Positions 7,675 through 62,517 are shown, counted from the stretch's first letter. The stretch is DNA of 64,000 nt from Flavobacteriales bacterium (GCA_016703005.1 JADJCX010000033.1:297767-361766), one strand, 5' to 3'. Notes: generated by a model from the letters alone, not told the origin. Made by a program: numbers and translations.

Positions 7675-8376
7675 ATGGAGCCTTTCCACTTCAAGCAATT
7701 CAGTGTGCGCCACGATCGCAGTGCGATCAAGGTGGGCACCGATTCCGTGTTGTTGGGTGCGTGGACGAACTACAACAAAGCGGAACGCATCCTCGATATC
7801 GGCACCGGTTGCGGAGTGTTGGCGTTGATCGCTGCACAGCGCAATGGAACGGCTCGCATAGACGGCATCGAGATCGATACCGCATCTGCCGAGGAAGCTA
7901 GGGCGAACGCGGCGGTAAGCCCATGGAATGATCGCCTGCGGATCCACAATATGGATGCGCGTAAGCTCGTGTCCAGTGACCGCTATGATCTCATCATCAG
8001 CAATCCACCGTTCTATGCCGGTGAGGAAGCTTCTCCGGACTCGCGCAGAAGCGTAGCCAAGCACAGTGGCGAATTGACGTTCAACGAATTGCTCTGTGCT
8101 GCGGATAAGTTGCTGGCTGCGGATGGGCGCATCAGCGTGGTGTTGCCCCTGAACAGGGAAAAAGACTTCCTGACTGACGCCGCGTTATTCGGATTGAAGC
8201 CGAACCGGCGATGCGTCGTGCGCTATCTGGGAAGCCGGCCGCCCAAACGCGTGATGCTGGAACTGGGCCGAAGAGCAGAGGAATTGGAACAGGAGGAGAT
8301 CACCGTGGAGAGCACACAGGGCGAGTTCTCAGCCGGGTACCGAACGCTGCTCAGCGATCTGCTGATGAAGTTCTGA
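7675..8376 (+). CDS. tRNA1(Val) (adenine37-N6)-methyltransferase-like small-domain methyltransferase (YfiC/TrmN6 family)
   Basis: SAM-binding DIGTGCGVLALI and the N6-adenine MTase motif NPPF. Confidence 0.65.
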   Translation: MEPFHFKQFSVRHDRSAIKVGTDSVLLGAWTNYNKAERILDIGTGCGVLALIAAQRNGTARIDGIEIDTASAEEARANAAVSPWNDRLRIHNMDARKLVSSDRYDLIISNPPFYAGEEASPDSRRSVAKHSGELTFNELLCAADKLLAADGRISVVLPLNREKDFLTDAALFGLKPNRRCVVRYLGSRPPKRVMLELGRRAEELEQEEITVESTQGEFSAGYRTLLSDLLMKF

Positions 8377-16330: not shown

Positions 16331-17944
16331 ATGAACGAGTTCGGTAACAAACCGAAGAACGCGGACCTGGCCAGCTTAGGACTGGGGCGTGTAGGCGAGA
16401 TCTACTGGAATCTTGAACCAGCTGAGCTGATCGAGGAGTCTATTTCCACCGGTCAGGGCATGTTCGCCGACAGCGGGGCTTTGGCGATCGATACCGGTGA
16501 ATTCACCGGCCGCAGCCCCAAGGACAAGTTCTGCGTGAGGGACACCAATACGGAGAACAGTGTGTGGTGGGGAGACGTCAACATCCCTTTCGATACTGCG
16601 AAGTTCGACTTGCTCCAGAGCAAGCTTTGCGCGTATTTCCAGGGTCGTCCGGTGTACGTGAAGGATGCCTATGCATGCGCTGATCCAAGTTTCAAACTCA
16701 ATATCCGGGTGATCGCTGAACAACCCGCCAGTGCACTATTCGCCAGCAACATGTTCCTGCGTCCGAAACGCGAAGAGATCGACAGCTTCGCCCCGGACTG
16801 GAACATCATCTGCGCGCCCGGATTCTGCGCGGATCCGGCCGTTGATGGTACGCGCCAGCACAATTTCGCGATTCTCAACTTCAGCAAGAAGACCATCCTG
16901 ATCGGGGGTACGGGTTACACCGGGGAGATCAAGAAAGGCATCTTCACCGTGCTCAACTATGTGTTGCCTCACGAGAAAGGGGTGCTAAGCATGCACTGTT
17001 CGGCCAACATCGGAAAGAGTGGTGATACTGCTGTGTTCTTCGGTTTGAGCGGCACCGGAAAGACAACATTGAGCGCCGACCCGGAACGTCACCTCATCGG
17101 CGACGATGAGCACGGTTGGAGCGCACATGGCGTATTCAACTTCGAAGGTGGTTGCTATGCGAAGTGCATCGACTTGAGCCGCGAGAAGGAACCCCAGATC
17201 TGGGATGCCATCAAATTCGGCGCATTGTTGGAGAACGTTGTGTTCAAAGAAGGAACCACCGAAGTGGACTTCGCCGATGGATCGAAGACGGAGAACACCC
17301 GTGTCAGCTACCCTATCGAGCACATCAGCAATATCGCGGTGCCCAGCAGCGGTGGGCATCCGAAGAACATTTTCTTCTTGACCTGCGATGCCAGCGGCGT
17401 TCTGCCGCCGATCAGTAAGCTCAGCGCGGGACAGGCCATGTACCACTTCATCAGTGGCTATACGGCGAAGGTTGCTGGCACCGAAGCCGGTATCACGGAG
17501 CCGAAGACAGTGTTCAGCGCCTGCTTCGGCGCACCCTTCTTGCCATTGCACCCGGGTAAGTACGCCGAGATGCTGGGTAAGAAGATGAAGGAGCACGATG
17601 TGCACATCTGGTTGGTGAACACAGGGTGGAGCGGCGGAGCCTATGGCACCGGCGAACGCATGAAGCTGAAGTTCACACGGGCGATGATCACATCGGCATT
17701 GAACGGTGAACTGGACAAGGTGGAGTACAAGCAGCACCCCGTATTCGGTGTCAGCGTCCCGACCTCATGTCCCAACGTGCCCGTTGAAGTGCTGGACCCG
17801 CGCAACACGTGGAAGAACAAGGAGGCCTACGATCAAGCAGCCGACAAGCTGGCCAAGGCGTTCAACGACAACTTCAAGAAGTACGCTGACGGTGTTAGCG
17901 CGGAGATCCTTGGCGCCGCCCCGAAGAGTGCTGTGAAGGCGTGA
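16331..17944 (+). CDS. pckA: Phosphoenolpyruvate carboxykinase (ATP)
   Basis: 537 aa with the P-loop GLSGTGKTTLS and kinase-1a region characteristic of PEPCK-ATP. Confidence 0.93.
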   Translation: MNEFGNKPKNADLASLGLGRVGEIYWNLEPAELIEESISTGQGMFADSGALAIDTGEFTGRSPKDKFCVRDTNTENSVWWGDVNIPFDTAKFDLLQSKLCAYFQGRPVYVKDAYACADPSFKLNIRVIAEQPASALFASNMFLRPKREEIDSFAPDWNIICAPGFCADPAVDGTRQHNFAILNFSKKTILIGGTGYTGEIKKGIFTVLNYVLPHEKGVLSMHCSANIGKSGDTAVFFGLSGTGKTTLSADPERHLIGDDEHGWSAHGVFNFEGGCYAKCIDLSREKEPQIWDAIKFGALLENVVFKEGTTEVDFADGSKTENTRVSYPIEHISNIAVPSSGGHPKNIFFLTCDASGVLPPISKLSAGQAMYHFISGYTAKVAGTEAGITEPKTVFSACFGAPFLPLHPGKYAEMLGKKMKEHDVHIWLVNTGWSGGAYGTGERMKLKFTRAMITSALNGELDKVEYKQHPVFGVSVPTSCPNVPVEVLDPRNTWKNKEAYDQAADKLAKAFNDNFKKYADGVSAEILGAAPKSAVKA

Positions 17945-18088: not shown

Positions 18089-19546
18089 ATGCTTGATCCG
18101 CTCCGCTGGTTGATCCTTGTTGCTGCGTTCGCGGCTGTATCCGGAGCGTGTGTCGGTCAAGGCGTTGGCGACCGCACGTACTATCCGGAGGAACTGCGCG
18201 AGATCTTGAGCTGTTGCGGACCACGCATCCACGAGGCACATGCCGATCCGTACCGGTACGTGAGCCGCGCGGAGCTCGATAGGCTTTTCGATCGGTTGCG
18301 TGATGGGTTGGGTACGACGCTTTCGGTCAGTTCGTTCATCGATTCGGTTGAAGTGGTACTGCGTGCGATCGGCGATGGACACACATCGTGCGAACTGCCT
18401 CTGGAGGATGCCGCGAGACTGGAAAGGCGGATCCCGATCATGCCGATGGAACTGTCGGTTATCGATGGTGGACTATATGTTCGCCGGGATAAGATGGACT
18501 TCCGGAGCATCGCACCGGGTTCCAGGGTGCTATCGATCGATGGTATTGCTGCCGAAGAGATCATCCGGACCTTGATGGACGAAGCGATCTGCGATGGTCG
18601 ATCAAGGAACGGCGCATTGCGCTTGGTCGAGAACGACTTTGCGATCCTTCACGGAATGCGCTTCGGGTTCCGCACGGAACACAAGCTCGTTTGTGAGAAT
18701 GTACATGGCGTTCTGGAACAAGTGGTCGTGCATTCGTTGACAGGTGAAGAGATGGCCGCCACGAGGCCATCGCAAGAAGAACTGCTGCCTTGGCGTGTTA
18801 CTTTCCATGAGGACCGCTCGCTCGCTTGGGTGGAAATGACCACGCTCGATGCGATGGCGCTTGCCGATGCCGATCAGCGACCCGAGAAATTCTTGGGCGA
18901 GCTCTTGCGGGAACTGGAAAAGAAGGAAGTCGGAATACTCGTGCTCGACTTGCGTGGCGCCGCGGGCGTAGACCTTGGGATGGCCGAACAGGTGTTCGCC
19001 TTGGTTGCCCAGAAACCATTCCGTGTAGTGCAGAGCATGGCCGTGCGATCGATCACGGTGCCCACTTGGTACCGCCGCGCCGTACCGCTGGATGACTTCT
19101 ATGCTTCAGCTGGTGGCCGGTTCGCACTGGAGGAGGCGGGTCTCTATGTATTGCATCCGAACGACGAGCGCTTGAAGGACCTTCCTGCGAGCTATCGCCG
19201 GTTCGAAGGCGGGGTGTATGTGCTACAGGATGGGCTCACACGGGAAGCCGCTGCTGCCGTTGGGATCCTGGCGAAGCGCAGCGGACGTGGCAAGCTGCTG
19301 GGTGAAGAGGCTGGCACGAATTCTTTCTCGTACTGCGGAGGAAGGGAATTGCTTATAACGGCACCCAATACGGGAGTGCGGTTCACGGTGCCATTGATCC
19401 GATATGTCTTCGACGGTGCAGCATCGGGCCCCAATGAACTGGGTGAATTGCCGGACATCACGCTCCAACCCGATGCCGGTAGTCTTGTTACCGGGGAAGA
19501 TGGTATCCGCAAAGCCGCGTTGACGGTCATCGAAGGACTACGATGA
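18089..19546 (+). CDS. Secreted S41-family (C-terminal processing/tricorn-like) peptidase homolog
   Basis: Signal peptide, a PDZ-like segment (VLSIDGIAAEEII) and an S41-like core. Domain recall only. Confidence 0.45.
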   Translation: MLDPLRWLILVAAFAAVSGACVGQGVGDRTYYPEELREILSCCGPRIHEAHADPYRYVSRAELDRLFDRLRDGLGTTLSVSSFIDSVEVVLRAIGDGHTSCELPLEDAARLERRIPIMPMELSVIDGGLYVRRDKMDFRSIAPGSRVLSIDGIAAEEIIRTLMDEAICDGRSRNGALRLVENDFAILHGMRFGFRTEHKLVCENVHGVLEQVVVHSLTGEEMAATRPSQEELLPWRVTFHEDRSLAWVEMTTLDAMALADADQRPEKFLGELLRELEKKEVGILVLDLRGAAGVDLGMAEQVFALVAQKPFRVVQSMAVRSITVPTWYRRAVPLDDFYASAGGRFALEEAGLYVLHPNDERLKDLPASYRRFEGGVYVLQDGLTREAAAAVGILAKRSGRGKLLGEEAGTNSFSYCGGRELLITAPNTGVRFTVPLIRYVFDGAASGPNELGELPDITLQPDAGSLVTGEDGIRKAALTVIEGLR

Positions 19547-42736: not shown

Positions 42737-43175
42737 GCTGCAGGCTTCAGGCCCCAAGCCACAGGCTTTTCTGAGTGCTATTCCCCGCTTCGCGCTGCCT
42801 GTGGTTGTCATGCGGCGGTTGTTCCGCTGAATTCAGGTCGGCGACCAGCCTGAGGCTTGGGGCCTGAAGCCTGCGGCCCTATGGTTTCAACACCGACATG
42901 AACCCGGATAGCATTTTCTGCTCCCGCTCCAAGGCTTGGATCAGTAATTCGACCTTGTCCTTTGGGCACCACGGGCGGCGTTGCGCCGAATCTCGCGTTC
43001 GTGCATACCTGTGGTTGTCGATCGATGCGGCGGTTGTTCAACGCGCTGAATTCAAGGAGTCGCAGTGACCAGCCTGAGGCCTGAAGCCTGTGGCCTGAGG
43101 CCATCCAATGCGCAGAGTTCAAGCAGTCGCAGTGACCAGCCTGTGGCCTGAGGCCTGTGGCTTGAAGCCTACTTT
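42737..43175. repeat. Intergenic cluster of direct and inverted GC-rich repeats (REP/MITE-like)
   Basis: About 3 copies of a ~70-90 bp unit (CCTGTGGTTGTC..ATGCGGCGGTTGTTC..GCTGAATTCA.G..GCGACCAGCCTGAGGC(C/T)TG..GCCTG). An inverted copy sits at 42737-42767 versus 42847-42877. Short GCCTG(A/T)GGCC sub-repeats. Confidence 0.6.
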
Positions 43176-45653: not shown

Positions 45654-46850
45654 GATAACTGGAGGTCTCAGGAGCATGTGGGTTAGAGTTGGATGGGCAC
45701 TGGCGGCCGGTAACCGAGTGCTTTGTGAGGTCGAAGATGGTTGTAATCGTACATCCATTCGGTGGTGCGCAAGCGAACCTCATCGAGGGTACGGAAGACG
45801 TATGCGCTGAGCACATCACGGCGCAGGGTTCCGTTGAGCCGTTCGATGTAAGCGTTTTGCGTGGGCTTGCCCGGTTGGATGAAGGTGAGGGTGATCTTTT
45901 GGAGCTTGCACCAGTGATCGAGTTTGGCGCTGATGAACTCCGGTCCATTGTCCACGCGGATCATGGTCGGTAGCGGACGATGTTCCTTGATCTGTTCAAG
46001 GGCACGTATCACGCGCTGAGCAGGCAGTGAGGTGTCCACCTCGATGGCCAGTACCTCGCGGTTGTAGTCGTCCAGGATATTGAGCAGTCGGTACGTGCGA
46101 CCGTCCCAGAGGCTGTCGTGCATGAAGTCGATGCTCCACACCTGATCAGGGGCTTGTGGTTGGAACAACGCCTGCTTCACGCGGGCAGGCAGGCGCTTCT
46201 TGGCCCTGCGCCGGATGTTCAGGCCCATGGCCGTGTACACCCGGTACACGCGCTTGAAGTTCCAGCGTTGACCCGTCAAACGCATGCGGTGATGGCTCTG
46301 CCACACGCCGATGGCCGGATGCCGCTGGGTGAGTTCGCCCAAGGCTTGGATGATCGCCGTGTCATCGGGTGGGTGCTTGAGGTACTGCGCGGTACTGCGA
46401 GCAAGGCCCACACAACGGCAAGCCTGCCGCTGTGTAAGTCCGTGTTCATTGCTCATCGCCTGCACGATTTCGCGCTTCTCGTCAGGCGCCCCACTTCTTT
46501 TCCACCACCTGCTTCAATGCATCGTGCATCATGCTCAGCTCGGCATACATGCGTTTGAGGCGTCCGTTCTCCTCCTGCAGTTCCTTCATCTGCTTGAGTT
46601 GGCTGGCGTCCAGACCACCGTACTTGGCCTTCCACTGGTAGAACGTGGCGTTGCTGATGCCGTGCTCGCGACAGATGTCGGCGACCTTGGCTCCAGCGTC
46701 ATGCTGCTTGAGCATCGAGACGATCTGATGCTCGGTGAACTTGCTTTTCCTCATGGCTACTACTTGTGTTGAAAGTAGCCCCTGACCGGTCAACGGGATT
46801 TTTCCCCAGGCCTGATGGGCCGGGAAAAATCCCGTTGACCTCCACTATCA
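45654..46850 (-). mobile_element. IS3-family insertion sequence (about 1.2 kb). orfA runs 46482-46754 and orfB (DDE integrase core) 45683-46465.
   Basis: orfA has an HTH region (MRKSKFTEHQIVSMLKQHDAGAKVADICREHGISNATFYQWKAKYGG). orfB has the rve/DDE core (...DNGPEFIS...[12 protein letters not shown]...). Imperfect terminal IRs about GATA(A)nTGGAGGTC at both ends. orfB overlaps orfA by about 33 nt but in the +1 rather than the usual -1 frame. Confidence 0.8.
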
Positions 46851-46872
46851 CATGGCCGAAGATTGGGGAAGC

Positions 46873-47973
46873 TTACACCGATCCTTTGCATATCTGCCCG
46901 CATAGAAAGTCGCTTGGCCTGGAGTCTTTGATTTCGATGCCGAAGGACTGCATCCTTCGATAAATGGTTTCGAAACCCACCATCGAAGGTTTGCCGTATT
47001 CAGCATTCACAGGTATATAGAATGGCTTGGTGAGAACATCGGCGGCTTCGCTGAAACGCTCATGCTTTATAAGGACCGCCAAGGAGAAAAGAAACAACTC
47101 ATGAATGAGAAATCTGTAGTTGTCAAACTCCCAGTCCTGCCAAGAATTCAAATTGGGTGACTTGTCCATATACGGAATGATGTCTTCAAAGAACCGATGA
47201 AGGCGATTAATGATTGCCTCACTCGGGTGATACTGGGCGATAGCCACGAAGAGATGAAGCATCTCGTTTCGTTGCGGAAGAAAGTCTCCAATGCTCGCTA
47301 CTACTGCCTCACCGAATTCTCCAGCCGGGTTCACTAATCTGATTCGCTCAAGGTTCTTGGCAAACGTTGTGCAGTACTCATCAAAGGCACCTTCAGCGTA
47401 GCTTTTATGGTCCCTTAGACCTTCCAGGCACCTTTTGAACAATAGAGAGGTGCCCAATGATGCATGCTCGCCCTCGTTCAAGAACGTGGGCATGGTACCT
47501 ATTTCGGGCTTCACATAAAGGGGTTTGTCAAAAATCCATCGGAGCAGCCGTTCAAGGTTGTCCGAGTACCGGTCCAATTCACTGAGGTCGATGTAGATTC
47601 TGGCCTTGTAGTATGTAGGAAGAAAGGGTTTGTCATTTGCGTCTTTATGGCTCACAACAGCAACGAACTTGTTTTGGTCTTGTCTGTCGTAAACTTCCTT
47701 AGAGATGATTTGCGTTTCAGTTCCAACACCACCCGATCGACCGTCCGCCTTACTCGCGTATTTCTCATCGCAGATAATAACCACCTTCTTAATGTCTGGA
47801 TTGGTGACCATTTGCTCCATGAAGGCCACCGCATCATGCCCTTCCCTCAAATCCCATTTGTCCAGAATCACATCCACTCCAGCCGACCGCAATTGAGTTG
47901 CAAGATCAATGACCCATTGTTCGTGATCCGGGCTGGACCAGCTGTATGAGATGAAGAGTTTTGGGGCGGACAT
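46873..47973 (-). CDS. TIR-domain protein with an uncharacterised ~230-aa C-terminal domain
   Basis: N-terminal TIR-like block KLFISYSWSSPDHEQWVIDLATQLRSAGVDVILDKWDLREGHDAVAFMEQMVTNPDIKKVVIICDEKYASKA. Low-GC (~45%) coding sequence. Start trimmed to MSAPKLF. Confidence 0.6.
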   Translation of the reverse strand: MSAPKLFISYSWSSPDHEQWVIDLATQLRSAGVDVILDKWDLREGHDAVAFMEQMVTNPDIKKVVIICDEKYASKADGRSGGVGTETQIISKEVYDRQDQNKFVAVVSHKDANDKPFLPTYYKARIYIDLSELDRYSDNLERLLRWIFDKPLYVKPEIGTMPTFLNEGEHASLGTSLLFKRCLEGLRDHKSYAEGAFDEYCTTFAKNLERIRLVNPAGEFGEAVVASIGDFLPQRNEMLHLFVAIAQYHPSEAIINRLHRFFEDIIPYMDKSPNLNSWQDWEFDNYRFLIHELFLFSLAVLIKHERFSEAADVLTKPFYIPVNAEYGKPSMVGFETIYRRMQSFGIEIKDSRPSDFLCGQICKGSV

Positions 47974-48142
47974 CCGATTATGAGTATGAGGCAAAGATGG
48001 CTCCCACTTGTCGCGTGATGGGCTGACGCTCGCCTTCGACTCGCTTAATTGCAAGTCAGCATTGCAGCGATTGGCTACATTCGCATCATGCGAGCTATGA
48101 CGCGGCGAATATGGATATGTGGCTAAGCCACTATCTCATTAT

Positions 48143-48216
48143 GGCCCCGTAGCTCAGTCGGTCAGAGCATCTGCCTTATACGCAGCCGGTCGCAGGTTCA
48201 AGTCCTGCCGGGGCTA
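48143..48216 (+). tRNA. tRNA with anticodon UAU (Ile-AUA decoding) on an ileX-like (tRNA-Ile2) backbone
   Basis: Cloverleaf: acceptor GGCCCCG/CGGGGCT, D-arm GCTCAGTCGGTCAGAGC, anticodon stem-loop TCTGC-CTTATAC-GCAGC, T-arm GCAGGTTCAAGTCCTGC, discriminator A, no encoded CCA. Near-identical architecture to E. coli ileX except the anticodon is TAT instead of CAT. Confidence 0.75.
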
Positions 48217-48348
48217 CTGATATTCCATCTCACCTTCATCACATGCACCCGCTCGCGCATTGCAGACGCTCGCCTTCGGCGAGTGTCCGAGCGGTGTACC
48301 AGCATGTGGTAAAGATCGGATACAAGATGAACTCTGGATATTAGAGCC

Positions 48349-48665: not shown

Positions 48666-49058
48666 TCAAGGCCTGTGGCCCGCCTTACCGATCCCCGTCG
48701 GCTGTATCGCGCTGGTCTCCACCATCAACACCACGGTCTTCTTGGGTGCGCGCGGGCGGTGCATTACGCCCTTGGTGATGGTGACACCCTGTTGGGGGTT
48801 CAGTTCGATGGTGCGGTCCTCGAGGTCTATGAGCAGTTGGCCTTCAAGCACCAGGAAGAACTCATCGTCGTTGTCGTGCTTGTGCCAGTGGAACTCGCCC
48901 TCCAGCATGCCCAAGCGCACCACGCTGTCGTTCACCTGGCTCAGGGTGCGGTTGGCCCACTTCTCCTTGGTGGCAGCCACAACAGCGGGAATGTCGATCT
49001 TCTCGAGGTGTGCGAACTGCACACCGAGGTCAATGTCGTAGGTGGTCTTGGGTTCCAT
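48666..49058 (-). CDS. Cupin-domain protein
   Basis: 130 aa. The two-His motif region (GEFHWHKHDNDDEFFLVLEGQLLIDL) and a later H are typical of the cupin_2 fold. Confidence 0.65.
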   Translation of the reverse strand: MEPKTTYDIDLGVQFAHLEKIDIPAVVAATKEKWANRTLSQVNDSVVRLGMLEGEFHWHKHDNDDEFFLVLEGQLLIDLEDRTIELNPQQGVTITKGVMHRPRAPKKTVVLMVETSAIQPTGIGKAGHRP

Positions 49059-49195
49059 TGGGCTTGGGCGTCGATCAAATCTAGCTTGGCGCTGCGTCTA
49101 TAAGTAAGGAACGCGCGCGCGGCTTACGATGGAGAGGTACAAGGGTTTCACCTTTCATTCTCCTTGATCTGCTGGCCACGAGTAGGGATATTTCG

Positions 49196-49448
49196 GAAGC
49201 TGATAGAGACATGTTCAGCGCAGACATGGGCATGTTGAAGTTGAACAGAGACCTGTTGGCCACGAACAGGGACATGATCGCCGCTGAAAGAGACATGTCG
49301 GCGGCCGATAGAGACATGTTAGCCGCTGAAAGAGGCATGATAGCGGCTGACAGAGACATGTTAGCCGCTGAAAGAGGCATGTTAGCGGCCGACAGAGACA
49401 TGTTAGCCGCTGACAAGCATGTTGATCGCTGACATGTACATGTCAGCC
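49196..49448. repeat. Tandem array of about 11-12 21-bp repeats (alternating GCCGCTGAAAGAGGCATGTTA and GCGGCCGACAGAGACATGTTA) ending in a perfect 20-bp palindrome GCTGACATGTACATGTCAGC
   Basis: Direct reading of 49196-49448. The 21-bp period equals two helical turns. Every unit contains an ACATGT-like core. Both strands stay open in several frames, as expected for a period that is a multiple of 3. Confidence 0.85.
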
Positions 49449-49584
49449 GTAAAAAGAGGCGTACGGAAGTCAAGCTTTTACTCTGACGGAGGTGTTTCCT
49501 CGCATCCGATCGCAGGTCAGCAGCCTTCGGTGTGTGTCATTCAGTCAAGGGCCTGTGGCCCGCCGCATGCATTAGCTTGAACCC

Positions 49585-50244
49585 GTGTTCCCTGCCACCC
49601 TAAATATCACTGTCTTCTGCGGCGCATTGCTGGTCGCTTGCGTCGTTGCTGCCCAGCCGCCGAAAGAGCCGGGGTCGTTCAGGCCACCCGACCTGGTGGA
49701 GATCGTGAAGCTGGATAAGACCATCAAGCTCGACATCCGCTACGCCACGAAGAACAATTTCCTGGGGCGACCGGTGTACAAACATGCACGGGCCTTTTTG
49801 CAGCGCCCGGCCGCCGAGGCACTGGTGCGCGTGCACCAAGCGCTGAAGGCGCAGGGCTTCGGGCTGCTGGTCTTCGATGGCTACCGGCCGTGGAGCGTTA
49901 CCAAGGTTTTTTGGGACAGCACACCCAACGACAAGAAGAGCTACGTGGCCGACCCCGCAGTAGGCTCGCGGCACAACCGCGGATGCGCGGTGGACCTCAC
50001 CTTGTTCGACCTCAAGACAGGTCGCGCTGTAACGATGCCCAGCGAATACGACGAGATGACGGAACGGTCGCATGCGGACCATTCCGGTGCAACGCCGGAG
50101 GCCACGCGCCTGCGCGATCTGCTCATCGCGGCCATGCAAGCGCAAGGCTTCACGGTCTTCGCCACCGAGTGGTGGCACTTCGACTACAAGGACTGGAAGG
50201 AGTATGCGATCCTGGATGTTCCGTTCAAGGAGATCGGGAAGTAG
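49585..50244 (+). CDS. ddpX: D-alanyl-D-alanine dipeptidase (M15 family, VanX/DdpX-like), secreted
   Basis: Signal peptide and M15D motifs (...SRHNRGCAVDLTLFD...EWWHFDY). Confidence 0.8.
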   Translation: MFPATLNITVFCGALLVACVVAAQPPKEPGSFRPPDLVEIVKLDKTIKLDIRYATKNNFLGRPVYKHARAFLQRPAAEALVRVHQALKAQGFGLLVFDGYRPWSVTKVFWDSTPNDKKSYVADPAVGSRHNRGCAVDLTLFDLKTGRAVTMPSEYDEMTERSHADHSGATPEATRLRDLLIAAMQAQGFTVFATEWWHFDYKDWKEYAILDVPFKEIGK

Positions 50245-50336
50245 ATGTCATTGGAATGTGAGTCGGAACCGCATAGGCCAAGAGCCGGGAGGCAACGCGC
50301 GTTCCGTCCTGCGTCTACTTTCGGCATTCTACCCCC

Positions 50337-51623
50337 ATGCGTGCACATACCCGTTCCTTCCTGCTATCCTGCGCTCTCGCATTCGCCCCGCTGGCACAGG
50401 CGCAGGACTTCTTCTGGGACTTCGAAGGAGCGAACGGCCTCGATGGATGGCACATGTATGATGGCAGTTCGATGCAGACGGGACCAGGTGCGGCCAGTGC
50501 GACCAGCGTGCGTTTGCAGAGCGGACCGCCCCTTAACAGCGGATCGTTCGATTCGGCCATGTTCTTCTACCATGTTGTGCCGTACGACCCTAACGTCTTT
50601 TACAACATTACAGTTGGGTGCATGACACTCGACCCCGATGTGTACCCGATGGTATACCTCGGTTGGCTCGATACGCTGACCCAGCCCGCATTCCTGAACG
50701 CCGCGAACACCAGCATGACCGTTTCGACGGGCCCCTCCAGCTGGGCCATCGCCGAATTGCTGGATGAGTATCCCATCACCGGAACGGGCGCGTACTGCAT
50801 CATCATTTCGGCTTCATCGTTGATCCCGGGCGAAGCCCTGTTCGACAACATTTCCGTTGAGATGATACCGCAGGGCTCGGCCATGCTCCGCGCGCCAAGG
50901 CTGTTCCTGGGCGGCAACTTCGATAGCGGCATCAACCGGATGGGCCACCATCTCAACGACCTGGGATTAGTGCCGGCCACGGAGCCATACACGGCCATGG
51001 GTTACCAGCAGATCGGCGGTGGTGGGGAGATGTGCACACCCTTTGTGATGGAACCGAGCTTCAACTTCAACGCCGTGGATTGGGTGCGCCTCGAATTGCG
51101 TTCGGCCTTGGACCCGACCGTGGTGGTGGCCACGCGGCAGCTCATGCTCACTTCACTCGGTCTTACGTGCGGCCCCAATGGGCAACTGAACCTGCACTTC
51201 GATCTGCCGGCCGGCAACTATTACGTGGCCGTGCGCCACCGGAACCATCTGGGTGCGATGACCGCCACGCCGGTGGCGCTGCCAAGTCCATTTCCATGGT
51301 GGGCGGTGGATTTCCGCTCGCCTTCGCTTGCCACATGGGGCAGCAATGCGCGCAAGGCGGTGGGGGCGAACATGGTGCTATGGGAAGGCGATGTCACAGG
51401 CGACCACTTGCTCAAGTATGTGGGTATGAACAACGACCGCGACCCCATTCTCGTGGCCATTGGTGCGTTGCCCATCGCTACCCTCACCGGTCAGTACCGC
51501 AAAGAGGATGTGACCATCGATGTCGTCGTGAAGTATGTCGGGGTGAACAACGACCGTGACCCCATCCTTGTGAATATCGGCGGTAATACGCCCAATGCCG
51601 TGCGCGTGGAGCAGGTGCCATAG
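50337..51623 (+). CDS. Secreted protein, paralog A of a novel family, with C-terminal dockerin-like Ca-binding repeats
   Basis: Signal peptide. Shares long blocks with 53834-55138 (FEGANGL.GW, EPYTAMGY.Q.GGGGE, VDWVR.ELRS..DPT..VATRQ, NYY.AVRHRNHLG.MTA.PV). Repeats of the form GD.TGD..LKYVG.NNDRDPILV.IG. Confidence 0.6.
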   Translation: MRAHTRSFLLSCALAFAPLAQAQDFFWDFEGANGLDGWHMYDGSSMQTGPGAASATSVRLQSGPPLNSGSFDSAMFFYHVVPYDPNVFYNITVGCMTLDPDVYPMVYLGWLDTLTQPAFLNAANTSMTVSTGPSSWAIAELLDEYPITGTGAYCIIISASSLIPGEALFDNISVEMIPQGSAMLRAPRLFLGGNFDSGINRMGHHLNDLGLVPATEPYTAMGYQQIGGGGEMCTPFVMEPSFNFNAVDWVRLELRSALDPTVVVATRQLMLTSLGLTCGPNGQLNLHFDLPAGNYYVAVRHRNHLGAMTATPVALPSPFPWWAVDFRSPSLATWGSNARKAVGANMVLWEGDVTGDHLLKYVGMNNDRDPILVAIGALPIATLTGQYRKEDVTIDVVVKYVGVNNDRDPILVNIGGNTPNAVRVEQVP

Positions 51624-51717
51624 GGGGTTACGAACTGGCGCGGGCCTTTCTAAGCGTCCATCGCAGAGTCGCTTGTGCGCGAGTCCTACGCATGAGGCCG
51701 CAGGGGCTCGCAGGCCG

Positions 51718-51820
51718 AGGGCTTCACCGTCTTCGCCACCGAGTGGTGGCACTTCGACCACAAGGACGGGAAGGAGTATGCGATCTTCGATGTGGAGTTC
51801 GGCAGGATCAAGGGTCAGTA
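51718..51820 (+). pseudogene. Fragment (~100 bp) of the ddpX 3' end
   Basis: ...GFTVFATEWWHFDHKDGKEYAIFDVEFGRIKGQ* is about 80% identical in DNA to 50140-50244. Confidence 0.7.
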
Positions 51821-51830
51821 GTTCCCCCGC

Positions 51831-53387
51831 CTATTCCTTCACTATGCGCAGGCAGGTCAAACCTTCATTGGAAGTCACCTGCAGGACGTAGGGTCCTGAA
51901 GGGAGAATACTCAGGTCAACAAGGGAGCCGCCAACGCGAAAGTGCCCAGTTTGCACTGTCGCACCCAAGGTGTTGATGACCACATAGACTGCGTTACTGC
52001 CTATGTCGCCGGTGATCCTGAAGACGCCGTTGCTCGGGTTCGGTGTGGCAGTGAGTCCCGGTGCTGGCAGTGATGGGTCCACCGCTGTGCTGAAATCCTC
52101 CTCACCGAGTTCAACAAGCCATACATCGCGCACGCCTATGAAGTCCTGGACGTCGCCATCATTCGATTGTGCATGCCCGGCCATCATGAAGTGGCCGTTG
52201 GGAAGTGCGACGATCGCCGAGCCGCCGTCAAAGTCGGTGCCGCCCATTGTTTTCTGCCACAGGAGATCCCCGAACGGGTCCAGACGTACAACCCAAGCAT
52301 CGGACCAGCCTTGGTTGCTGGTCACGTCGCCATCGGCAGAGCGTGTGTTACCGGTGAAAATGAACCCACCGTCATAGAGCTGGTCCATGTCGATCGGGGT
52401 GTCGAACAGAGAGCCACCGATACAATGCTGCCACTGCAGGTTGCCCAGTGAGTCCAGCTTCACGATCCAAGCGTCCTCATCGCCGTGGAGGCCGCTCACG
52501 TCGCCATCATTGGACGAGGTTCTCGCGGCGATCACATAGCCACCATCCGAGGTGAGCGCCAGATCGAACGGGTTTTCGGACCACGTGCCGCCAAAGGACT
52601 GCTCCCAGAGGATCGCACCGACGCTGTCCACCTTCACCAACCACACATCGTTGGCGCCGAGGTTCTGGGAAACGTCGCCATCGGAGGACAAAGAACTGGC
52701 CGCGAAGACATAGCCGCCGTCCATGGTCCTGGTGATGGACCAACCCACTTCGGCCAAGCTGCCGCCGTAGCACCGCTGCCATTCCAACCCGCCAGTGCTG
52801 TCGAGCTTCACCACCCATGCGTCGTCCGCACCGTGATTGCCGCTCACGTCGCCGTCGTTCGAGGTGGTGCGCGCTATCAGTATGCAGCCACCGTCCGGCG
52901 TGCCTTCAATGCACGCCACGGTCTCGTTGCTCGATCCACCGAGGTCGATGTTCCACTGTACGTTCCCACCGCTATCGAGCTTTACCACCCCGATGTCCGA
53001 GTAAAGCACCGGATACGGCGTGATGTACCCGGTAAGGAAGTAACCACCGTCAGCGGTTGGTGCGAGACCATGGGCATCATCCCAACTAACACCGCCCAGC
53101 GTTTGCTGCCATAGCAGCGTTCCGGTGCTATCGATCTTGAATACCCACATGTCGTGATCGCCGTTCTGCCCCGAAATGTCGCCATCGACCGAGGTTGTGA
53201 ACCCGGAGACAACGAAGCCGTTGTCAGCCGTGCGCAGGAGGTTGCGCCCCATCTCGTCATGCGATCCTCCATAGGTCTCCTGCCATACAATGGGCGGTGC
53301 TATCTGGCCGATGATGGTGCCGCGCAACACAAGAACCGCAACAGGGATGATCGTCCAACGAAAGAAGCGGGCGACTGAGCTTTGCAT
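51831..53387 (-). CDS. Secreted beta-propeller-repeat protein with a T9SS type A C-terminal sorting domain
   Basis: About 8 repeats of about 50 aa (DGGY...G.T.S.DGDVSGNHG.DDAWVVKLDS.G.L.WQ...GG) and a Por-secretion tail (...GPYVLQVTSNEGLTCLRIVKE). Confidence 0.7.
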   Translation of the reverse strand: MQSSVARFFRWTIIPVAVLVLRGTIIGQIAPPIVWQETYGGSHDEMGRNLLRTADNGFVVSGFTTSVDGDISGQNGDHDMWVFKIDSTGTLLWQQTLGGVSWDDAHGLAPTADGGYFLTGYITPYPVLYSDIGVVKLDSGGNVQWNIDLGGSSNETVACIEGTPDGGCILIARTTSNDGDVSGNHGADDAWVVKLDSTGGLEWQRCYGGSLAEVGWSITRTMDGGYVFAASSLSSDGDVSQNLGANDVWLVKVDSVGAILWEQSFGGTWSENPFDLALTSDGGYVIAARTSSNDGDVSGLHGDEDAWIVKLDSLGNLQWQHCIGGSLFDTPIDMDQLYDGGFIFTGNTRSADGDVTSNQGWSDAWVVRLDPFGDLLWQKTMGGTDFDGGSAIVALPNGHFMMAGHAQSNDGDVQDFIGVRDVWLVELGEEDFSTAVDPSLPAPGLTATPNPSNGVFRITGDIGSNAVYVVINTLGATVQTGHFRVGGSLVDLSILPSGPYVLQVTSNEGLTCLRIVKE

Positions 53388-53439
53388 GATGCAATGTAAA
53401 CCTCCTTCCATAGGCCCAAAGCGCTCGAGGCGGAACAGT

Positions 53440-53722
53440 TGTCCGCGCGGCACAACCGCGGCTGCGCGGTGGATCTCACACTCTTCGACCTCAAGACCGG
53501 TCAGGCCGTGACGATGCCAGCGAACACGATGAGATGAACGAACGGTCCTACCCGACCTATTCAGGTGCTGCTCCGGAAGCCACGCGCATGCGCGATCTGC
53601 TGATCGCGGCGATGCAGGCGGAGGGCTTCACGGTCTTCGCCACCGAGTGGTGGCACTTCGACTATAAGGACTGGAAGGAGTATGCGATCTTGGATCTACC
53701 GTTCAAGGAGATCGGGAAGTAG
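53440..53722 (+). pseudogene. Fragment (~280 bp) of the ddpX 3' half, frameshifted
   Basis: Aligns to ddpX from ...HNRGCAVDLTLFDLKTG to the stop. A 1-nt deletion lies near 53518. The last 62 codons remain open as ORF 53534-53722. Confidence 0.75.
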
Positions 53723-53833
53723 TGGGCCATAGCTGGTGAGGTGGCGGCCTTGGCACGGTAGTCCTGATCCATCGGACCACAAGGCAACACTTCGCCGCAT
53801 ACCCCGTCTATCCGGTACATCATTTCCCTGCGC

Positions 53834-55138
53834 ATGCTATCCCAGTTGGTTCGTTGTGCCTCGGTAGGCATTTTTGTCATCGTCGGGAACACGGCTGCCT
53901 CGCAGACCTACAGCTTCAATTTCGAGGGTGCGAACGGCCTTTCGGGTTGGGTGCAGAACGACGGCCAACCCATTGGCACGGGGGCAGGTGCAAGCGGTAG
54001 CACGGCGTTGTCCATTTCCGTGGACCAGGTCAACTGGGACCGTCGTGTTTACCATCCCATTCCGTTCGACCCGACCAAGGTCTATCGGTACTCGGCCTGG
54101 ACGAAAGTGGGGCAACTCTCGACTACCACATCGGTAAGGCTCGCGTGGGTCGACTTCAGCACCGGACAGCGCATCTACACCGATACCTACTATCTGAACG
54201 GAAATTATGGCGCATGGCGGCCAGGGGGTATCCCGCCTCATCTCATCCCGACGGCCGACTTCTCGTCGAACCCGAACGCACAGTTCTGCATCGTGCTCGA
54301 AGCATTCGATGGTCTTACCGGCATCGCATGGTTCGATGATGTGGTGGTGACGATGAGCGACGTTTCCTCCACTGCGTTCATCAGTGCGCTTGTGATGTTG
54401 GGCGGTACGTACACCAACGGCTACATGCCTGCCAACCTGCGCTTGCAGAACCTGCTGCCTGTGCTGGAACCGTACACCGCGTTGGGCCATGTGCAAGTGG
54501 GTGGTGGCGGTGGCGAAACGGCGCCGGAAGCATGGTGGAACTTCAACAACCTGGACGGGCCGGTGGATTGGGTGCGGGTTGAATTGCGCTCTCCGATCGA
54601 CCCGACCATCATCGTGGCCACGCGGCAAGGGCTGGTGAGCAGCATCGGCTCGATCACCGAGGTGGACGGCGGCAGTGCCCTTGGTTTCAGTGTTGCACCG
54701 GGCAATTATTACCTGGCGGTGCGGCACCGCAACCACCTCGGGTGCATGACCGCCTCGCCGGTTTTCGTGCAAGGTGCCATCACGGTTCCGTGGTCGGCTT
54801 ATGGTTTCGTGGACTTCACTGCGGCCGCTACCCCTGTTTGGGGGACCGATGCGCGGAAGCACGGTGACAACACTTACAACTACAAGGTGCTATGGCCCGG
54901 TGACACCAATGGCGATGGTGTGGTGAAGTACACCGGTGCCAACAATGACCGCGATCCCATTCTGCAAGCGATCGGCGGCGTCCTGCCGACCAATACGTTG
55001 CCCAGCGTTTACAACATACATGACGTGGGCATGGACGGCACGGTGAAATACACCGGGTCCTTCAACGACCGCGATCCGATCCTGCAGACCATCGGAGGTG
55101 TTATTCCCACGTTGACGCGCGCGGCGCAGTTGCCTTGA
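53834..55138 (+). CDS. Secreted protein, paralog C of the novel family, with dockerin-like repeats
   Basis: Signal peptide. Conserved blocks shared with 50337-51623. Repeats DTNGDGVVKYTGANNDRDPILQAIGG and GMDGTVKYTGSFNDRDPILQTIGG. Confidence 0.6.
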   Translation: MLSQLVRCASVGIFVIVGNTAASQTYSFNFEGANGLSGWVQNDGQPIGTGAGASGSTALSISVDQVNWDRRVYHPIPFDPTKVYRYSAWTKVGQLSTTTSVRLAWVDFSTGQRIYTDTYYLNGNYGAWRPGGIPPHLIPTADFSSNPNAQFCIVLEAFDGLTGIAWFDDVVVTMSDVSSTAFISALVMLGGTYTNGYMPANLRLQNLLPVLEPYTALGHVQVGGGGGETAPEAWWNFNNLDGPVDWVRVELRSPIDPTIIVATRQGLVSSIGSITEVDGGSALGFSVAPGNYYLAVRHRNHLGCMTASPVFVQGAITVPWSAYGFVDFTAAATPVWGTDARKHGDNTYNYKVLWPGDTNGDGVVKYTGANNDRDPILQAIGGVLPTNTLPSVYNIHDVGMDGTVKYTGSFNDRDPILQTIGGVIPTLTRAAQLP

Positions 55139-55254
55139 AGTGATCCAGTGGCCCATTGAAGGGGGCCCGTGATGGGCTGACGGTCGCTTCCGGCAAGTGT
55201 CCTTTGGTCCGGGGCCTCATACCCGTCTCCCTATTTTCAGCGCCGTTCCCCATC

Positions 55255-55656
55255 ATGAATACTCCCTTCCTTATCGGCCTCATCATCTTCCTGCTCTGTG
55301 CGTTCGGCGCGCGCTTCATATCCGAGCGTGCCATGCGTTCGTTGCCCGCTGAGCAGAAGTTGAAGCTCATCGATGCGTTTTCCGGGATGCGGATGTACGG
55401 GCTGCTATGGACCATCGGTTTGCTCGGCGCCTACTTTGCTTTGCCCACGCTGCTGCCGAACGCACCAATGCTTTCGTTGTCCATCAGCTTGGGGCTGGCC
55501 GTCATCTTTCTTGTGGTTCGACAAGTCATGGTCCGGAAAAAGTTGAACGCGCTGGATGTCGACGCCGCCTACAAGCGCAAGGTGAAGATGGCCCAACTGC
55601 TCATCGGCTTGGGCTTGGTGGTCTTTATCGGGTGCGTGTTGGCGGGGGTAATGTGA
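55255..55656 (+). CDS. Hypothetical small membrane protein
   Basis: 133 aa with 3-4 TM helices. Start trimmed to MNTPFL. Confidence 0.4.
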   Translation: MNTPFLIGLIIFLLCAFGARFISERAMRSLPAEQKLKLIDAFSGMRMYGLLWTIGLLGAYFALPTLLPNAPMLSLSISLGLAVIFLVVRQVMVRKKLNALDVDAAYKRKVKMAQLLIGLGLVVFIGCVLAGVM

Positions 55657-55743: not shown

Positions 55744-57211
55744 ATGAACGCTCGTTACTTACTGCTCTTTCCCATTTGCGCAATGGCCCTCCAAGCCACC
55801 GCCCAAGTGGATCCCTTGGACCCCGGTTTCGGCACCAATGGCATCGTTAGCATCCCCGGCACCTATGCGCAGGTCGGCGAGTTCGTGTTGCCGTACGACG
55901 ACGGCCGTCTGTTGGTGGTAAGCTCGCTGCTGCCATGGATGGCGCCGACACAACGAGTGCAGTGTACACGCTTGTTGCAGGATGGAACGTTGGATGCGGG
56001 TTTCGGCACTGGCGGCACCGTGGAGTTGTACCTGATGGGCGAGAAGTTCACGGCCACTGATGGCGCGTTGCTGCCCAATGGAGCCATCGTATTGTGCGGG
56101 TATTTGGGCGATATCGCGGGCGGCGTTCTGATGAAGCTGTTGCCGGACGGAAGTCCCGACCCGCTGTTCGACTCGGATGGCATTGCGGTGTTTCCCGGTC
56201 TGGATGTGCTCCACTCGGTATTGGTGTTGGCCGACGGCTCCATGATCGCATCTGGAGAAACCATTGAGCCGGTGATCTTGAAGGTGAACGCGTTCGGCGA
56301 ACCTGACGCCGCTTTCGGCAACAGCGGTTTTCTCTACCCCTCCGGTACGGGCGCCATTACCCATCTGGAGCGCACGCCCGGTGGCGATGTGGTGGGCGCA
56401 GGTTACATCAACATCATGTTCGACCTCTTCTTTGTGAAGTTCACCACAACAGGCGACCTCGTTTCGACCTTCGGCACCAATGGCGAAGCAATCGTTCCGC
56501 TGCTGCCATCCAACGACGCTCCGCGCGCGCTGCAGATCCTGGACGATGGCCGCATGATGGTGGCGGTGAACGGTGATGGGGCTGATTCGTACATGGTGCG
56601 GCTCAACGCCGACGGAACCCTGGACCCGAGCTTTGGCGTCGGTGGTGTTGTAGCAGGTGCCTCGTTACCCAACGGCGATTTCCTCTTCACCAGTTCGGTT
56701 ACCACGCCGCAAGGCACCACCATAGCGGGCTACAGGGCGTTGACGCCGGGCATTGCCTACGTGGTGCGCTTGGATGCCAGCGGAAGTCCGGTGCTGGGCT
56801 TCGGCAACAACGGCACGTACACGCTCGACCCTGATACCTCCTACTTGCATGGCGCCTGTGTAACAGCGTTGGGCCAAGTGGTGGTAACAGGGGGTGAAGC
56901 TGTTCGGCCCGAACATGGGCATTCTCGTTGCGCGGTTGTCGGCCAGCCCCGAAGGCATCGAACAACTTGCTCCCGGTGTTGAACCGCTTTCCATCATCCG
57001 CATTGCAGCTGATGCTGTGCGCGTAACCGCGGGCGATCGCGTTCTGGAGTGTTGGGTGTTCGACGCGGCCGGTAGAACGGTGCAGCACCTCAACGGCAAT
57101 GGAACGGCTGTGGTCGATATCGGCACCGGCGGCATCAGCACAGGGGCATACGCGGTAGTGGTGCGCACACAAAGCGCAACCGTGGCAGGGCGCTTCGTGC
57201 AGAGCGAGTAG
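55744..57211 (+). CDS. Delta-60-repeat protein with a T9SS C-terminal sorting domain, interrupted by a frameshift near 56890-56894
   Basis: Signal peptide, then repeats of the form .DGSLD..FG..G (LDAGFGTGG, PDPLFDSDG, PDAAFGNSG, LVSTFGTNG, LDPSFGVGG, PVLGFGNNG). The Por-secretion tail is in ORF 56894-57211. G4 instead of G5 at 56890-56894 joins the two ORFs (...VVTGVKLFGPNMGILVARL...). Confidence 0.6.
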
Positions 57212-57289
57212 CGGCTGAACGATCCAGGCGTAGAGGGCGCTATGGGGTCCGCAACGCCAAGGCCCGAATGAACTGCCTGCATATCGCTA

Positions 57290-61236: not shown

Positions 61237-61401
61237 GTTGGTACGTCAATGCTACGCACGGAACCACCAGTTCAGGCCCGTTCATTCGCCGACTGCCGTT
61301 CCCGCATGCCTTGTCAGGCGCTGCGTTGAGCCACCATGGCTCATGGTTCCCCCTGCCTGTCATGCCGAACACGGGGCACCATTGTTGGCCGAACAGGCGC
61401 A

Positions 61402-62517
61402 ATGAACGACCCACGCTATATCACCACGGAGCCTTGGCAGAAGCAATTCGCCAGCACGGTGCGCAAGAATGTCAACACGTACTTCAAGGAGCGCGGTCTG
61501 TCCACGAAAGGGGATGGGCGCTTGGTGGTGAAGACCATTGCCATGCTCGCGATTTACCTCGTGCCGTTCGTGCTGTTGCTCACCTTGCCCATCAGCGGGT
61601 GGTGGGCGCTGCCGTTCGCGGCGCTCATGGGCATCGGCATGGCAGGCATCGGTATGAGCGTGATGCACGATGCCGTGCACGGCTCGGCCAGCAGCCATCA
61701 ATGGATCAACAAGATGATGGGCAGCAGTATGTACCTGCTCGGCAGCAACGTGCTCACTTGGAAGATCCAGCACAATGTGAAACACCACACGCACACCAAC
61801 GTGAGCGAGATGGACCACGACATCGATTCGCGCGGCCCGCTGCGGTTCAGCGAACATGTGAAACTGCGGTGGATACACCGGTTCCAGCATGTGAGCGCAT
61901 TCTTCCTGTACGGCCTGCTTACGTTGGCCAAGTTGGTGAACGACTTCTTCATGCTCGTTCAGTTCGGCAAGGAAGGGCACCTCGCGAAGCAGGGCAAGGA
62001 CACGCGCCGAGAGGTGGTGAAGCTCGCCTTCATGAAGGCCGGTTACCTGGCCATCTTCATCGGCTTGCCGCTCATCTTCTCAGCACTCGCCTGGTGGCAG
62101 GTGTTGCTCGGCTTCCTCATCATGCACATCATTGCCGGTGTCATCCTTGGCGTCGTGTTCCAATTGGCGCACGTGGTGGAAGGCGCCGACCAGCCGGTGC
62201 CTGATGAGAACGATACGATCCACACGGATTGGGCTGTCCACGAAGTGCTCACCACCGCCGACTTCGCGCGCAACAACCGCTTCCTGAACTGGTACGTCGG
62301 TGGTCTCAACTTCCAGATCGAGCACCATCTCTTCCCGCACATCTGCCATGTGCACTACCGAAAGATCGCGCCCATTGTCGAACGTACTGCGCGCGAATTC
62401 GGCTTGACGTACAATCTGAAGCCTACGCTCTTCGCTGCGCTCGCATCGCATGTGCGCCGCTTGAGGACGCTCGGTCGACCGCAGTTGGTCCCGGTGGTCG
62501 TGCCATCAAAGGGCTGA
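61402..62517 (+). CDS. Membrane fatty-acid desaturase family protein
   Basis: His boxes HDAVHG, HNVKHH and QIEHHLFP, with four TM segments. Start trimmed to MNDPRY. Confidence 0.85.
   Translation: MNDPRYITTEPWQKQFASTVRKNVNTYFKERGLSTKGDGRLVVKTIAMLAIYLVPFVLLLTLPISGWWALPFAALMGIGMAGIGMSVMHDAVHGSASSHQWINKMMGSSMYLLGSNVLTWKIQHNVKHHTHTNVSEMDHDIDSRGPLRFSEHVKLRWIHRFQHVSAFFLYGLLTLAKLVNDFFMLVQFGKEGHLAKQGKDTRREVVKLAFMKAGYLAIFIGLPLIFSALAWWQVLLGFLIMHIIAGVILGVVFQLAHVVEGADQPVPDENDTIHTDWAVHEVLTTADFARNNRFLNWYVGGLNFQIEHHLFPHICHVHYRKIAPIVERTAREFGLTYNLKPTLFAALASHVRRLRTLGRPQLVPVVVPSKG

Follow-up and report, generated by a model that had tools for sequence, protein, structure and literature searches.

In a 64,000-nt stretch of DNA from a Flavobacteriales bacterium (GCA_016703005.1 JADJCX010000033.1:297767-361766; the whole stretch is hereafter called the window), the 3′ end of ddpX, a gene for an M15D D-Ala-D-Ala dipeptidase, occurs three times between positions 49585 and 55138, once within the intact gene and twice as a displaced partial copy. 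We hold with modest confidence that these copies record a series of single-gene insertions at the ddpX 3′ end, probably through single-crossover homologous recombination, with each event leaving behind one decaying tail. The repeats would then mark a site at which whole genes join a conserved gene, and not an expanding duplicated block. The features of the locus, in their order along the window, are the following:

49585-50244, plus strand: intact ddpX, M15D D-Ala-D-Ala dipeptidase; backbone gene and left edge of the insertion site
49967-50244, plus strand: tail A, the stretch of intact ddpX that recurs downstream, ending at the TAG stop codon
50291-50317, plus strand: promoter motif resembling those of extracytoplasmic function (ECF) sigma factors, GGCAAC-N15-CGTCTA, 20 nt upstream of P1 and outside the ddpX tail
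50337-51623, plus strand: P1, encoding a secreted protein composed of a signal peptide, a jelly roll like that of carbohydrate-binding modules (CBM), another beta-sandwich and two dockerin-like repeats at the C-terminus
51706-51821, plus strand: tail C, a decayed ddpX 3′-end relic of ~115 bp with its own diverged last codons and its own stop codon
51831-53387, minus strand: SBBP-type beta-propeller gene sorted by the type IX secretion system (T9SS), 518 aa from Met23 of the open reading frame (ORF), between tails C and B
53446-53722, plus strand: tail B, a ddpX 3′-end relic of 279 bp between the divergently oriented beta-propeller and P2 genes
53783-53810, plus strand: ECF-sigma-like promoter motif GGCAAC-N16-CGTCTA, upstream of P2 and outside tail B
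53834-55138, plus strand: P2, encoding a CBM-like secreted protein that belongs to the P2 ortholog group
55156-55656, plus strand: small membrane protein; backbone gene and right edge of the inserted block

Intact ddpX matched the Pfam family PF01427 (Peptidase_M15) with 131.5 bits (4.6e-38; cut-off 27) and the NCBIfam model NF007557 (D-Ala-D-Ala dipeptidase) with 172.9 bits, just below the equivalog cut-off of 176. Its translation contains the sequences SRHNRGCAVD and EWWH, i.e. the H-x6-D and E-x-x-H motifs, which we take to have the zinc-binding and catalytic roles known from VanX, and its N-terminus carries a signal or lipoprotein-like sequence. Orthologs with 78% identity are present in the closed genome CP064979.1 of a related species (locus L002) and at locus L091; all relatives referred to here are, by their source names, uncultured Flavobacteriales.

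Self-comparison of the window recovered the three ddpX 3′ ends as its sole repeats, local tandem arrays aside, at positions within a few bases of those given in a first-pass annotation of this DNA, which had described a frameshifted recurrence of the last ~280 bp of ddpX at 53.4 kb and of the last ~100 bp at 51.7 kb. Tail B aligned with tail A at 87.1% identity (279 columns, 3 gaps; blastn E = 2e-85), and the homology broke off precisely at the ddpX stop codon, dropping from 87% to the level of noise. The frameshift in tail B is due to a 1-nt deletion near 53516 and must be recent, since tail B of strain L088 carries an extra C at 53516 and is in frame, zinc-ligand motifs included. Tail C, which is also present in strains L001 and L087, has an 84-bp core (51710-51793) with 93% identity to 50146-50219 and 92.7% identity to 53614-53695 (E = 1e-24 to 1e-27).

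The two relics differ in how they have diverged from the intact gene. Mismatches between tails C and A were evenly spread over the three codon positions (13/9/9), and a conserved tryptophan of tail C is replaced by glycine (DWKEY to DGKEY), with a further tryptophan-to-arginine change in strain L001. Moreover, tail C ends in DVEFGRIKGQ and a stop codon, which is the type of ending found in ddpX of L002 and L091, whereas tails A and B end in D[VL]PFKEIGK and a stop codon. Mismatches between tails B and A, in turn, were concentrated at third positions (11/3/22), so that some of the divergence between A and B dates from a time when each was a functional allele; either the in-gene tail or relic B thus appears to be derived from a diverged allele. 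Between the window and strain L088, tail B differed by ~5% over 53590-53690, while the spacer and the start of P2 contained 14 mismatches in 53796-53895 and the rest of P2 0-7 per 100 bp. Tail B thus shows no sign of constraint, but the bins are too uneven to call it faster than coding sequence.

These observations bear on the question of whether the tail copies are kept for a function, either as promoter or leader of the downstream gene or as the source of a small C-terminal DdpX fragment. The reading frame and zinc-ligand motifs preserved in L088, the position of tail B as the filling of a divergent intergenic region and an ORF called over the corresponding relic in L002 would all be in line with such a role. 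However, tail B of the window is frameshifted, tail C has lost its tryptophan to glycine or arginine, relic changes are even over codon positions, and tail B changes between strains about as fast as the adjoining non-coding spacer. Consensus scans and Rfam searches of the tails revealed no promoter-like or terminator-like sites and no Rfam families, P1 and P2 have their promoter-like motif outside the tails, and P2 orthologs in other species work without one. We therefore regard a function of the tails as very unlikely.

The spacing between the two longer copies and the genes that follow them had led the first-pass annotation to propose a segmental duplication with the ddpX tail plus the secreted gene as its unit. 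The spacing itself was as described (92 bp from the ddpX stop codon to the P1 start codon, 111 bp from the tail B stop codon to the P2 start codon), but the components of the proposed unit have diverged to very different degrees: the tails share 87% identity, the spacers, except for a short promoter-like motif that they share, align like shuffled sequence (17 of 300 shuffles reached the observed score), and P1 and P2 share ~64% identity at the DNA level and 38% at the protein level (E = 2e-80). Comparison with other species revealed that members of the P1 ortholog group are 50-61% identical, with 53% between P1 and P0006 of L002 and 50-53% between P1 and the members in L083 and L084. P2 shares 71% identity with the product of L002 13446-14771 and 77% with P0014 of L091, while identities between the two ortholog groups amount to 38-44%. 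As each paralog is closer to its orthologs in other species than to its partner, P1 and P2 are not in-paralogs, and their split predates the species compared.

A tandem duplication of tail and secreted gene could still be maintained if P1 and P2 diverged in place while gene conversion kept the tails similar. It would account for tails A and B each standing ~100 bp before a paralog with a common promoter-like motif, for the L002 tail relic that likewise precedes a P-family gene, and for those between-strain differences in tail C that match the sequence of tail A, which are compatible with conversion. Nevertheless, the age of the split is at odds with this explanation, as are the spacers that do not align and the P2 orthologs in L002 and L091, which have no tail in front. 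In addition, tblastn searches of the window with P1 and P2 returned just those two genes and hence no remnant of a third paralog, and scars around unrelated cargo at other loci (a toxin-antitoxin pair, a PhoD gene, an acetyltransferase gene; see below) would be left unexplained. Given the gap between tail and gene divergence, joint duplication is impossible unless the tails were continuously homogenised, and we consider this scenario quite unlikely.

The motif GGCAAC-N15/16-CGTCTA was found twice in the window against 0.02 matches expected, in each case ~20 nt before the start codon of a paralog, and it also precedes the P1 ortholog of L002 (L002 9957-9983), while a relaxed form stands upstream of most P-family members examined. 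We presume that it is recognised by an ECF sigma factor, based on the AAC and CGT hallmarks of the known consensus. Because the motif lies outside the tails, the paralogs carry a predicted promoter of their own.

The first-pass annotation had further called the paralog pair novel, which is not the case at the level of the locus, as the family comprises more than 1,850 database proteins and occurs in Flavobacteriales metagenome-assembled genomes (MAGs). Searches of P1 and P2 against Pfam, NCBIfam and PDB sequences gave no match. An AlphaFold model of P2, calculated from a 34-sequence alignment, reached a mean predicted local distance difference test score (pLDDT) of 78 and a predicted template modelling score (pTM) of 0.76 with a low-confidence C-terminus; its N-terminal jelly roll matched CBM16, CBM22 and CBM4 folds with target template modelling (TM) scores of ~0.7 and is followed by a second beta-sandwich. 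Two C-terminal VKYTGxNNDRDPIL repeats were read by us as presumably resembling dockerin-type calcium loops. P1 and P2 are therefore unannotated secreted proteins that are probably glycan-binding. As a separate observation, the C-terminal ~240 aa shared by P1 and P2 are joined in other family members to pyrroloquinoline quinone (PQQ) sugar dehydrogenase, delta-60 repeat, endonuclease/exonuclease/phosphatase (EEP) nuclease, peptidase and other N-terminal domains, and this module may represent an undescribed surface-anchoring or sorting module of Flavobacteriales.

The third gene of the inserted block encodes a beta-propeller protein with a C-terminal Por_Secre_tail domain, the defining feature of T9SS type A cargo, which scored 31.5 bits with TIGR04183 (cut-off 23) and 26 bits with PF18962 (cut-off 27). 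Its closest orthologs are P0121 (95%) and P0123 (68%), the latter located in L002. According to the first-pass annotation this gene, which is oriented opposite to its neighbours, had overwritten the middle copy of the duplication unit. However, no third paralog remnant is left in the window, and in CP064979.1 the beta-propeller gene likewise lies between full-length ddpX and a tail relic, which identifies it as an insert in its own right rather than an overwriter. More distant orthologs (P0128, P0125 and P0139; 55-63% identity) are found at unrelated loci without tails; a conserved cassette of tail, beta-propeller gene and tail in distant species was therefore rejected.

Comparison of gene order in the relatives allowed the backbone to be separated from the inserts. 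At L090-L093 the order is P2 ortholog, ddpX, a gene for a 137-aa membrane protein and a fatty-acid desaturase gene, with no extra tail. The 137-aa protein of L091 matched window positions 55255-55632 with 44% identity in a tblastn search and its L002 homolog with 82%, and the desaturase gene of the window is located at 61336-62517. The order at L090-L093 together with the homologs in the window thus defines a backbone of ddpX, membrane protein and desaturase, and in the window P1, tail C, the beta-propeller gene, tail B and P2 all lie between the first two of these. In L002, the order is ddpX, beta-propeller ortholog, tail relic, P1 ortholog, secG, membrane protein, desaturase and P2 ortholog. 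The L002 relic measures 138 bp and is 94% identical to ddpX of the same genome; polarisation with outgroups assigned 7-9 derived changes to the relic, even over codon positions, and 2-3 to intact ddpX, which is the pattern expected of a decaying scar. Among all copies for which substitutions were polarised in order to find the imported one, the outcome was clear solely for this relic. None of 80 ddpX loci from other species contained a second ddpX tail, and we rejected the idea that extra tails are a general property of ddpX loci.

As the window is probably metagenome-derived, we asked whether different strain haplotypes that diverge after ddpX might have been chained through a common tail during assembly, a kind of artefact already raised in the first-pass annotation. 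Several strains do coexist in one sample, and one contig (L085) breaks off 28 bp short of tail B, a behaviour typical of assemblers at repeats. In contrast, contigs of other assemblies reproduced all junctions: L001 (ENA ERZ27280354) matched 49822-52787 at 97.8%, and from JGI 3300012533 L087 matched 50146-52115 at 98.8%, L085 matched 51832-53418 at 95.7% and L088 matched 53296-54977 at 97%. Since every junction is tiled by these independent ENA and JGI contigs, and with sequence variation, the arrangement is not an assembly artefact. The relics are moreover degenerate (frameshift, lost tryptophan, diverged ends) instead of being alternative intact alleles, and the closed genome of the related species has a like structure. 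We consequently judge the artefact to be extremely improbable.

The same contigs revealed where strains have exchanged sequence. Between the window and L001, 23 mismatches fell within 49821-49995 (13%) and none within the next ~120 bp, followed by ~0.3% mismatch through P1, tail C and the beta-propeller gene; this step indicates a recombination breakpoint inside ddpX. Between the window and L085, 54 mismatches were counted in 51832-52031 (27%), i.e. in the T9SS sorting domain, and ~0.4% thereafter, which places a second breakpoint inside the 3′ end of the beta-propeller gene. To the left of the beta-propeller stop codon, the L085 sequence is unrelated to the window, and the pattern suggests either that sorting domains are swapped or that T9SS cargo genes recombine with one another. 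In L087, an orphan tail of ~101 bp takes the place of ddpX in front of P1; it begins 15 nt past the stop codon of another gene, which encodes an unrelated small membrane protein and for which no database homolog was found. P1 is consequently bracketed by two tails of ~100 bp in this contig, an arrangement that suggests another insert between ddpX and P1. Comparison with related strains, as had been recommended, thus substantiated the view of an actively recombining locus by the breakpoints within ddpX and the beta-propeller gene, whereas the expanding duplicated block that had been part of the same proposal did not hold.

From these data we infer how the locus may have arisen, including a circular intermediate and a succession of insertions. 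The ddpX 3′ end would form the left border of a region of flexible gene content in an uncultured Flavobacteriales clade, into which secreted-protein genes with their own promoters were inserted singly, namely P1, the T9SS beta-propeller gene and possibly P2. Every such event would have taken place within the last 100-280 bp of ddpX and left ddpX intact, with a partial tail copy shifted beyond the insert, so that tails B and C would represent displaced, non-functional relics. A single crossover (Campbell-type or 'ends-in') appears to be the most likely mechanism, with incoming DNA that was circular or end-homologous, came from a related genome and carried a piece of the ddpX tail together with a neighbouring gene; the length of a relic would equal the length of homology carried. 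Recombination between the bracketing tails could excise the gene again, and the resulting circle could re-enter any related ddpX.

What is observed at the locus corresponds to what a single crossover produces: an intact gene, an insert and a partial copy on its far side, which varies in length and, in the 3′-tail cases, runs up to the stop codon, beyond which the two genomes share no homology. The fragments of the conserved 3′ region that lie downstream measure ~101 bp (L087 orphan tail), ~115 bp (tail C), 138 bp (L002) and 279 bp (tail B), and these differing lengths fit homology-dependent rather than site-specific events.

Direct repeats of a gene 3′ end around inserted DNA with the gene left intact are, on the other hand, the classic signature of integrative islands. 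The tails could accordingly be attL/attR-type repeats of small cassettes that integrate site-specifically at the ddpX 3′ end and supply a replacement tail, with the recombinase encoded elsewhere. Direct repeats of the ddpX 3′ end do flank an insert next to an intact ddpX, the start points of tail C and of the L087 orphan tail differ by no more than ~12 bp, and the surrounding zone is variable, with a tRNA gene and an IS3 transposase gene close by. However, Pfam scans of the main ORFs detected no tyrosine or serine recombinase among the annotated ORFs from 41.6 to 63.3 kb, where the IS3-type rve (DDE) transposase at 45683-46465 is the sole mobile-element gene. The copies share no constant boundary (~101, 115, 138 and 279 bp before the stop codon), and predicted single-stranded DNA folding of the three tails on both strands, scored for attC-like hairpins, was not above that of shuffled sequences (z = −0.5 to −1.6). 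Comparable cases, finally, exist at unrelated genes and involve 5′ heads as well as 3′ tails. Site-specific integration is in our view an unlikely explanation.

These further cases were found at several loci. In L002, the last 137 bp of an E1 dehydrogenase gene (2262-2398) are repeated at 2987-3123 with 92.7% identity, just after an inserted antitoxin/ParE pair. The displaced E1 tail has lost its stop codon and is 94% identical to the E1 tail of the window, the whole L002 E1 gene being ~87% identical to its counterpart there; ~7 derived changes in the intact L002 tail against 3-4 in the relic are suggestive, not significant. In L083, the repeat on either side of a P1-group gene is 92 bp long (91%; 8658-8749 and 10281-10372) and corresponds to the 5′ head of the downstream acetyltransferase gene. 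L086 contains two such arrangements, an acetyltransferase gene bracketed by an 81-bp repeat of the 3′ tail of a Pirin gene (11602-11681 and 12251-12330) and a PhoD gene bracketed by a 66-bp repeat of the promoter and head of a Lactamase_B gene (16881-16946 and 18691-18756). Taken together, the bracketing direct repeats of L083 and L086 measure 66-92 bp at 85-91% identity. Outside the clade, at the control locus L069 from an Acidobacteriaceae MAG, a gene for a 370-aa protein without a Pfam hit separates rpoC from a 104-bp repeat of its 3′ tail (95%; 6749-6852 and 8016-8119). The scar pattern is generic and not tied to ddpX. Gene-end duplications numbered 7 events in 151 kb of clade loci, and the control loci (1.16 Mb) contained 17 repeat pairs when all kinds were counted; an enrichment in the clade is not claimed, because the clade loci were picked through their cargo genes.

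Scars at many different genes, and duplications of variable length, would also be expected if genes were inserted in one step without homologous recombination, by illegitimate recombination or replication template switching that duplicated 66-280 bp of the target. The L002 ddpX relic and the intact tail indeed resemble one allele split in place (94% identity, with most derived changes in the relic). In all 3′-tail cases examined, however, the repeats stop at the stop codon, for which differing neighbours in donor and recipient are a simpler explanation than random breaks. The third-position bias of the differences between tails B and A likewise argues against a one-step origin, and the distribution of derived changes over the two E1 tails of L002 suggests that the intact one was imported. 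We regard one-step insertion as unlikely.

Several points weigh against serial insertion by single crossover. No circular intermediate and no donor arrangement was observed. Under the simplest nested model, in which the newest insert lies nearest to ddpX, tail C should be younger than tail B, yet it looks more decayed and has a different allele type at its end. The third-position bias of tail B requires a divergent donor allele or a later allelic replacement of ddpX, and the relic next to the beta-propeller gene precedes the P1 ortholog in L002 and P2 in the window, which calls for two independent insertions or further rearrangements. The contigs L085 and L087 stem from short-read metagenomes and may be chimeric at repeats, the counts are small, and the related loci were chosen via homology to the cargo genes, which introduces an ascertainment bias. 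Independent insertions, a later allelic replacement of ddpX as indicated by the comparison of the window with L001, and patchy gene conversion could all contribute to the present arrangement.

If serial single-gene insertion is correct, the relics with their differing degrees of decay would constitute a datable record of secreted-protein turnover in uncultured activated-sludge Flavobacteriales, and gene-end relics could be used as markers of past single-gene insertions. A more far-reaching and rather improbable proposal would be that the gene-end repeats are working parts of an integrase-independent exchange of cassettes, which are excised as circles by host recombination and re-inserted in related genomes. 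Uncultured Flavobacteriales, and perhaps other phyla as in the rpoC case, would in this way shuffle secreted-protein, toxin-antitoxin and enzyme genes via 'tail-anchored' cassettes at a rate well above background. Should the pattern turn out to be frequent genome-wide, host recombination alone would emerge as a cassette-moving process; for now, it is best regarded as an ordinary scar of an island border.

A number of features in the vicinity of the insertion site were recorded alongside. To the right of the small membrane protein, an ORF at 55744-56982 (within the entry 55744-57282) encodes a DUF5122 (delta-60 repeat) beta-propeller with an odd Arg/Cys-rich tail, which is followed by ~300 bp of apparently non-coding sequence; the ORF may be a frameshifted gene. 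Upstream of ddpX, between a cupin gene (48666-49058, minus strand) and ddpX itself, an array of ~12 tandem 21-nt units occupies 49163-49450, with the consensus AGAGACATGTTAGCCGCTGAA, which includes the palindrome ACATGT; Tandem Repeats Finder (TRF) reported periods of 21, 42 and 63 nt with 74-79% matches. Further upstream, between the E1 dehydrogenase gene and ddpX, a variable stretch of lower GC content (0.53) extends over 45683-48217 and contains:

45683-46465, minus strand: IS3-family transposase
46873-48054, minus strand: SEFIR/TIR-domain protein
48143-48217: tRNA-Ile, anticodon TAT

The equivalent stretch of L002 contains other genes and no tRNA. Between the transposase and TIR genes, a palindromic element at 46784-46842 gave hits below threshold on both strands to RF04341, an unrelated Rfam family, and is probably a hairpin terminator or the end of an insertion sequence (IS). 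Just upstream of the E1 dehydrogenase gene, a 67-bp unit with 14-nt sub-repeats (AGCCTGAGGCCTGA) occurs twice in tandem at 43039-43169 (87%).

Serial single-gene insertion at ddpX shares traits with several known systems. In Neisseria, 'minimal mobile elements' cause variation in gene content between conserved flanks by homologous recombination. Like the ddpX locus, they present differing whole genes at one site between conserved flanks, contain no mobility gene and depend on host recombination; unlike the ddpX locus, they are exchanged by double crossover, through both flanks, and no part of a flanking gene is left duplicated. Integrative islands and prophages in the 3′ ends of genes resemble the ddpX locus in the direct repeats that bracket the insert, in the intact target and in the several copies that tandem insertions generate. 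The ddpX locus differs from them in having no integrase among the annotated ORFs, inserts of single genes of 1.3-1.6 kb and varying boundaries, and in a pattern that recurs elsewhere at many genes, including their 5′ heads. Integron cassette arrays are likewise composed of small single-gene units stacked beside a fixed site, and the analogous cases include a toxin-antitoxin cassette (L002); at the ddpX locus, however, there is no intI or attI and no attC-like fold in the region examined, orientations are mixed, the genes have their own promoters, and the repeats are copies of a neighbouring gene.

A similar architecture is seen in the 'C-terminal displacement' arrays of Rhs genes, in which an intact gene is followed downstream by variable-length repeats of its conserved 3′ region. 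For these arrays, a two-step model of homologous recombination with a circular intermediate has been proposed, by which new DNA enters and the old end is shunted downstream (Jackson et al. 2009, PMC2935791). In Rhs arrays, variable toxin tips are displaced together with immunity genes, and it is the conserved core preceding the tip that is repeated. At the ddpX locus, in contrast, ddpX is no polymorphic toxin, the conserved tail itself is repeated up to the stop codon, and whole unrelated genes with predicted promoters of their own make up the cargo.

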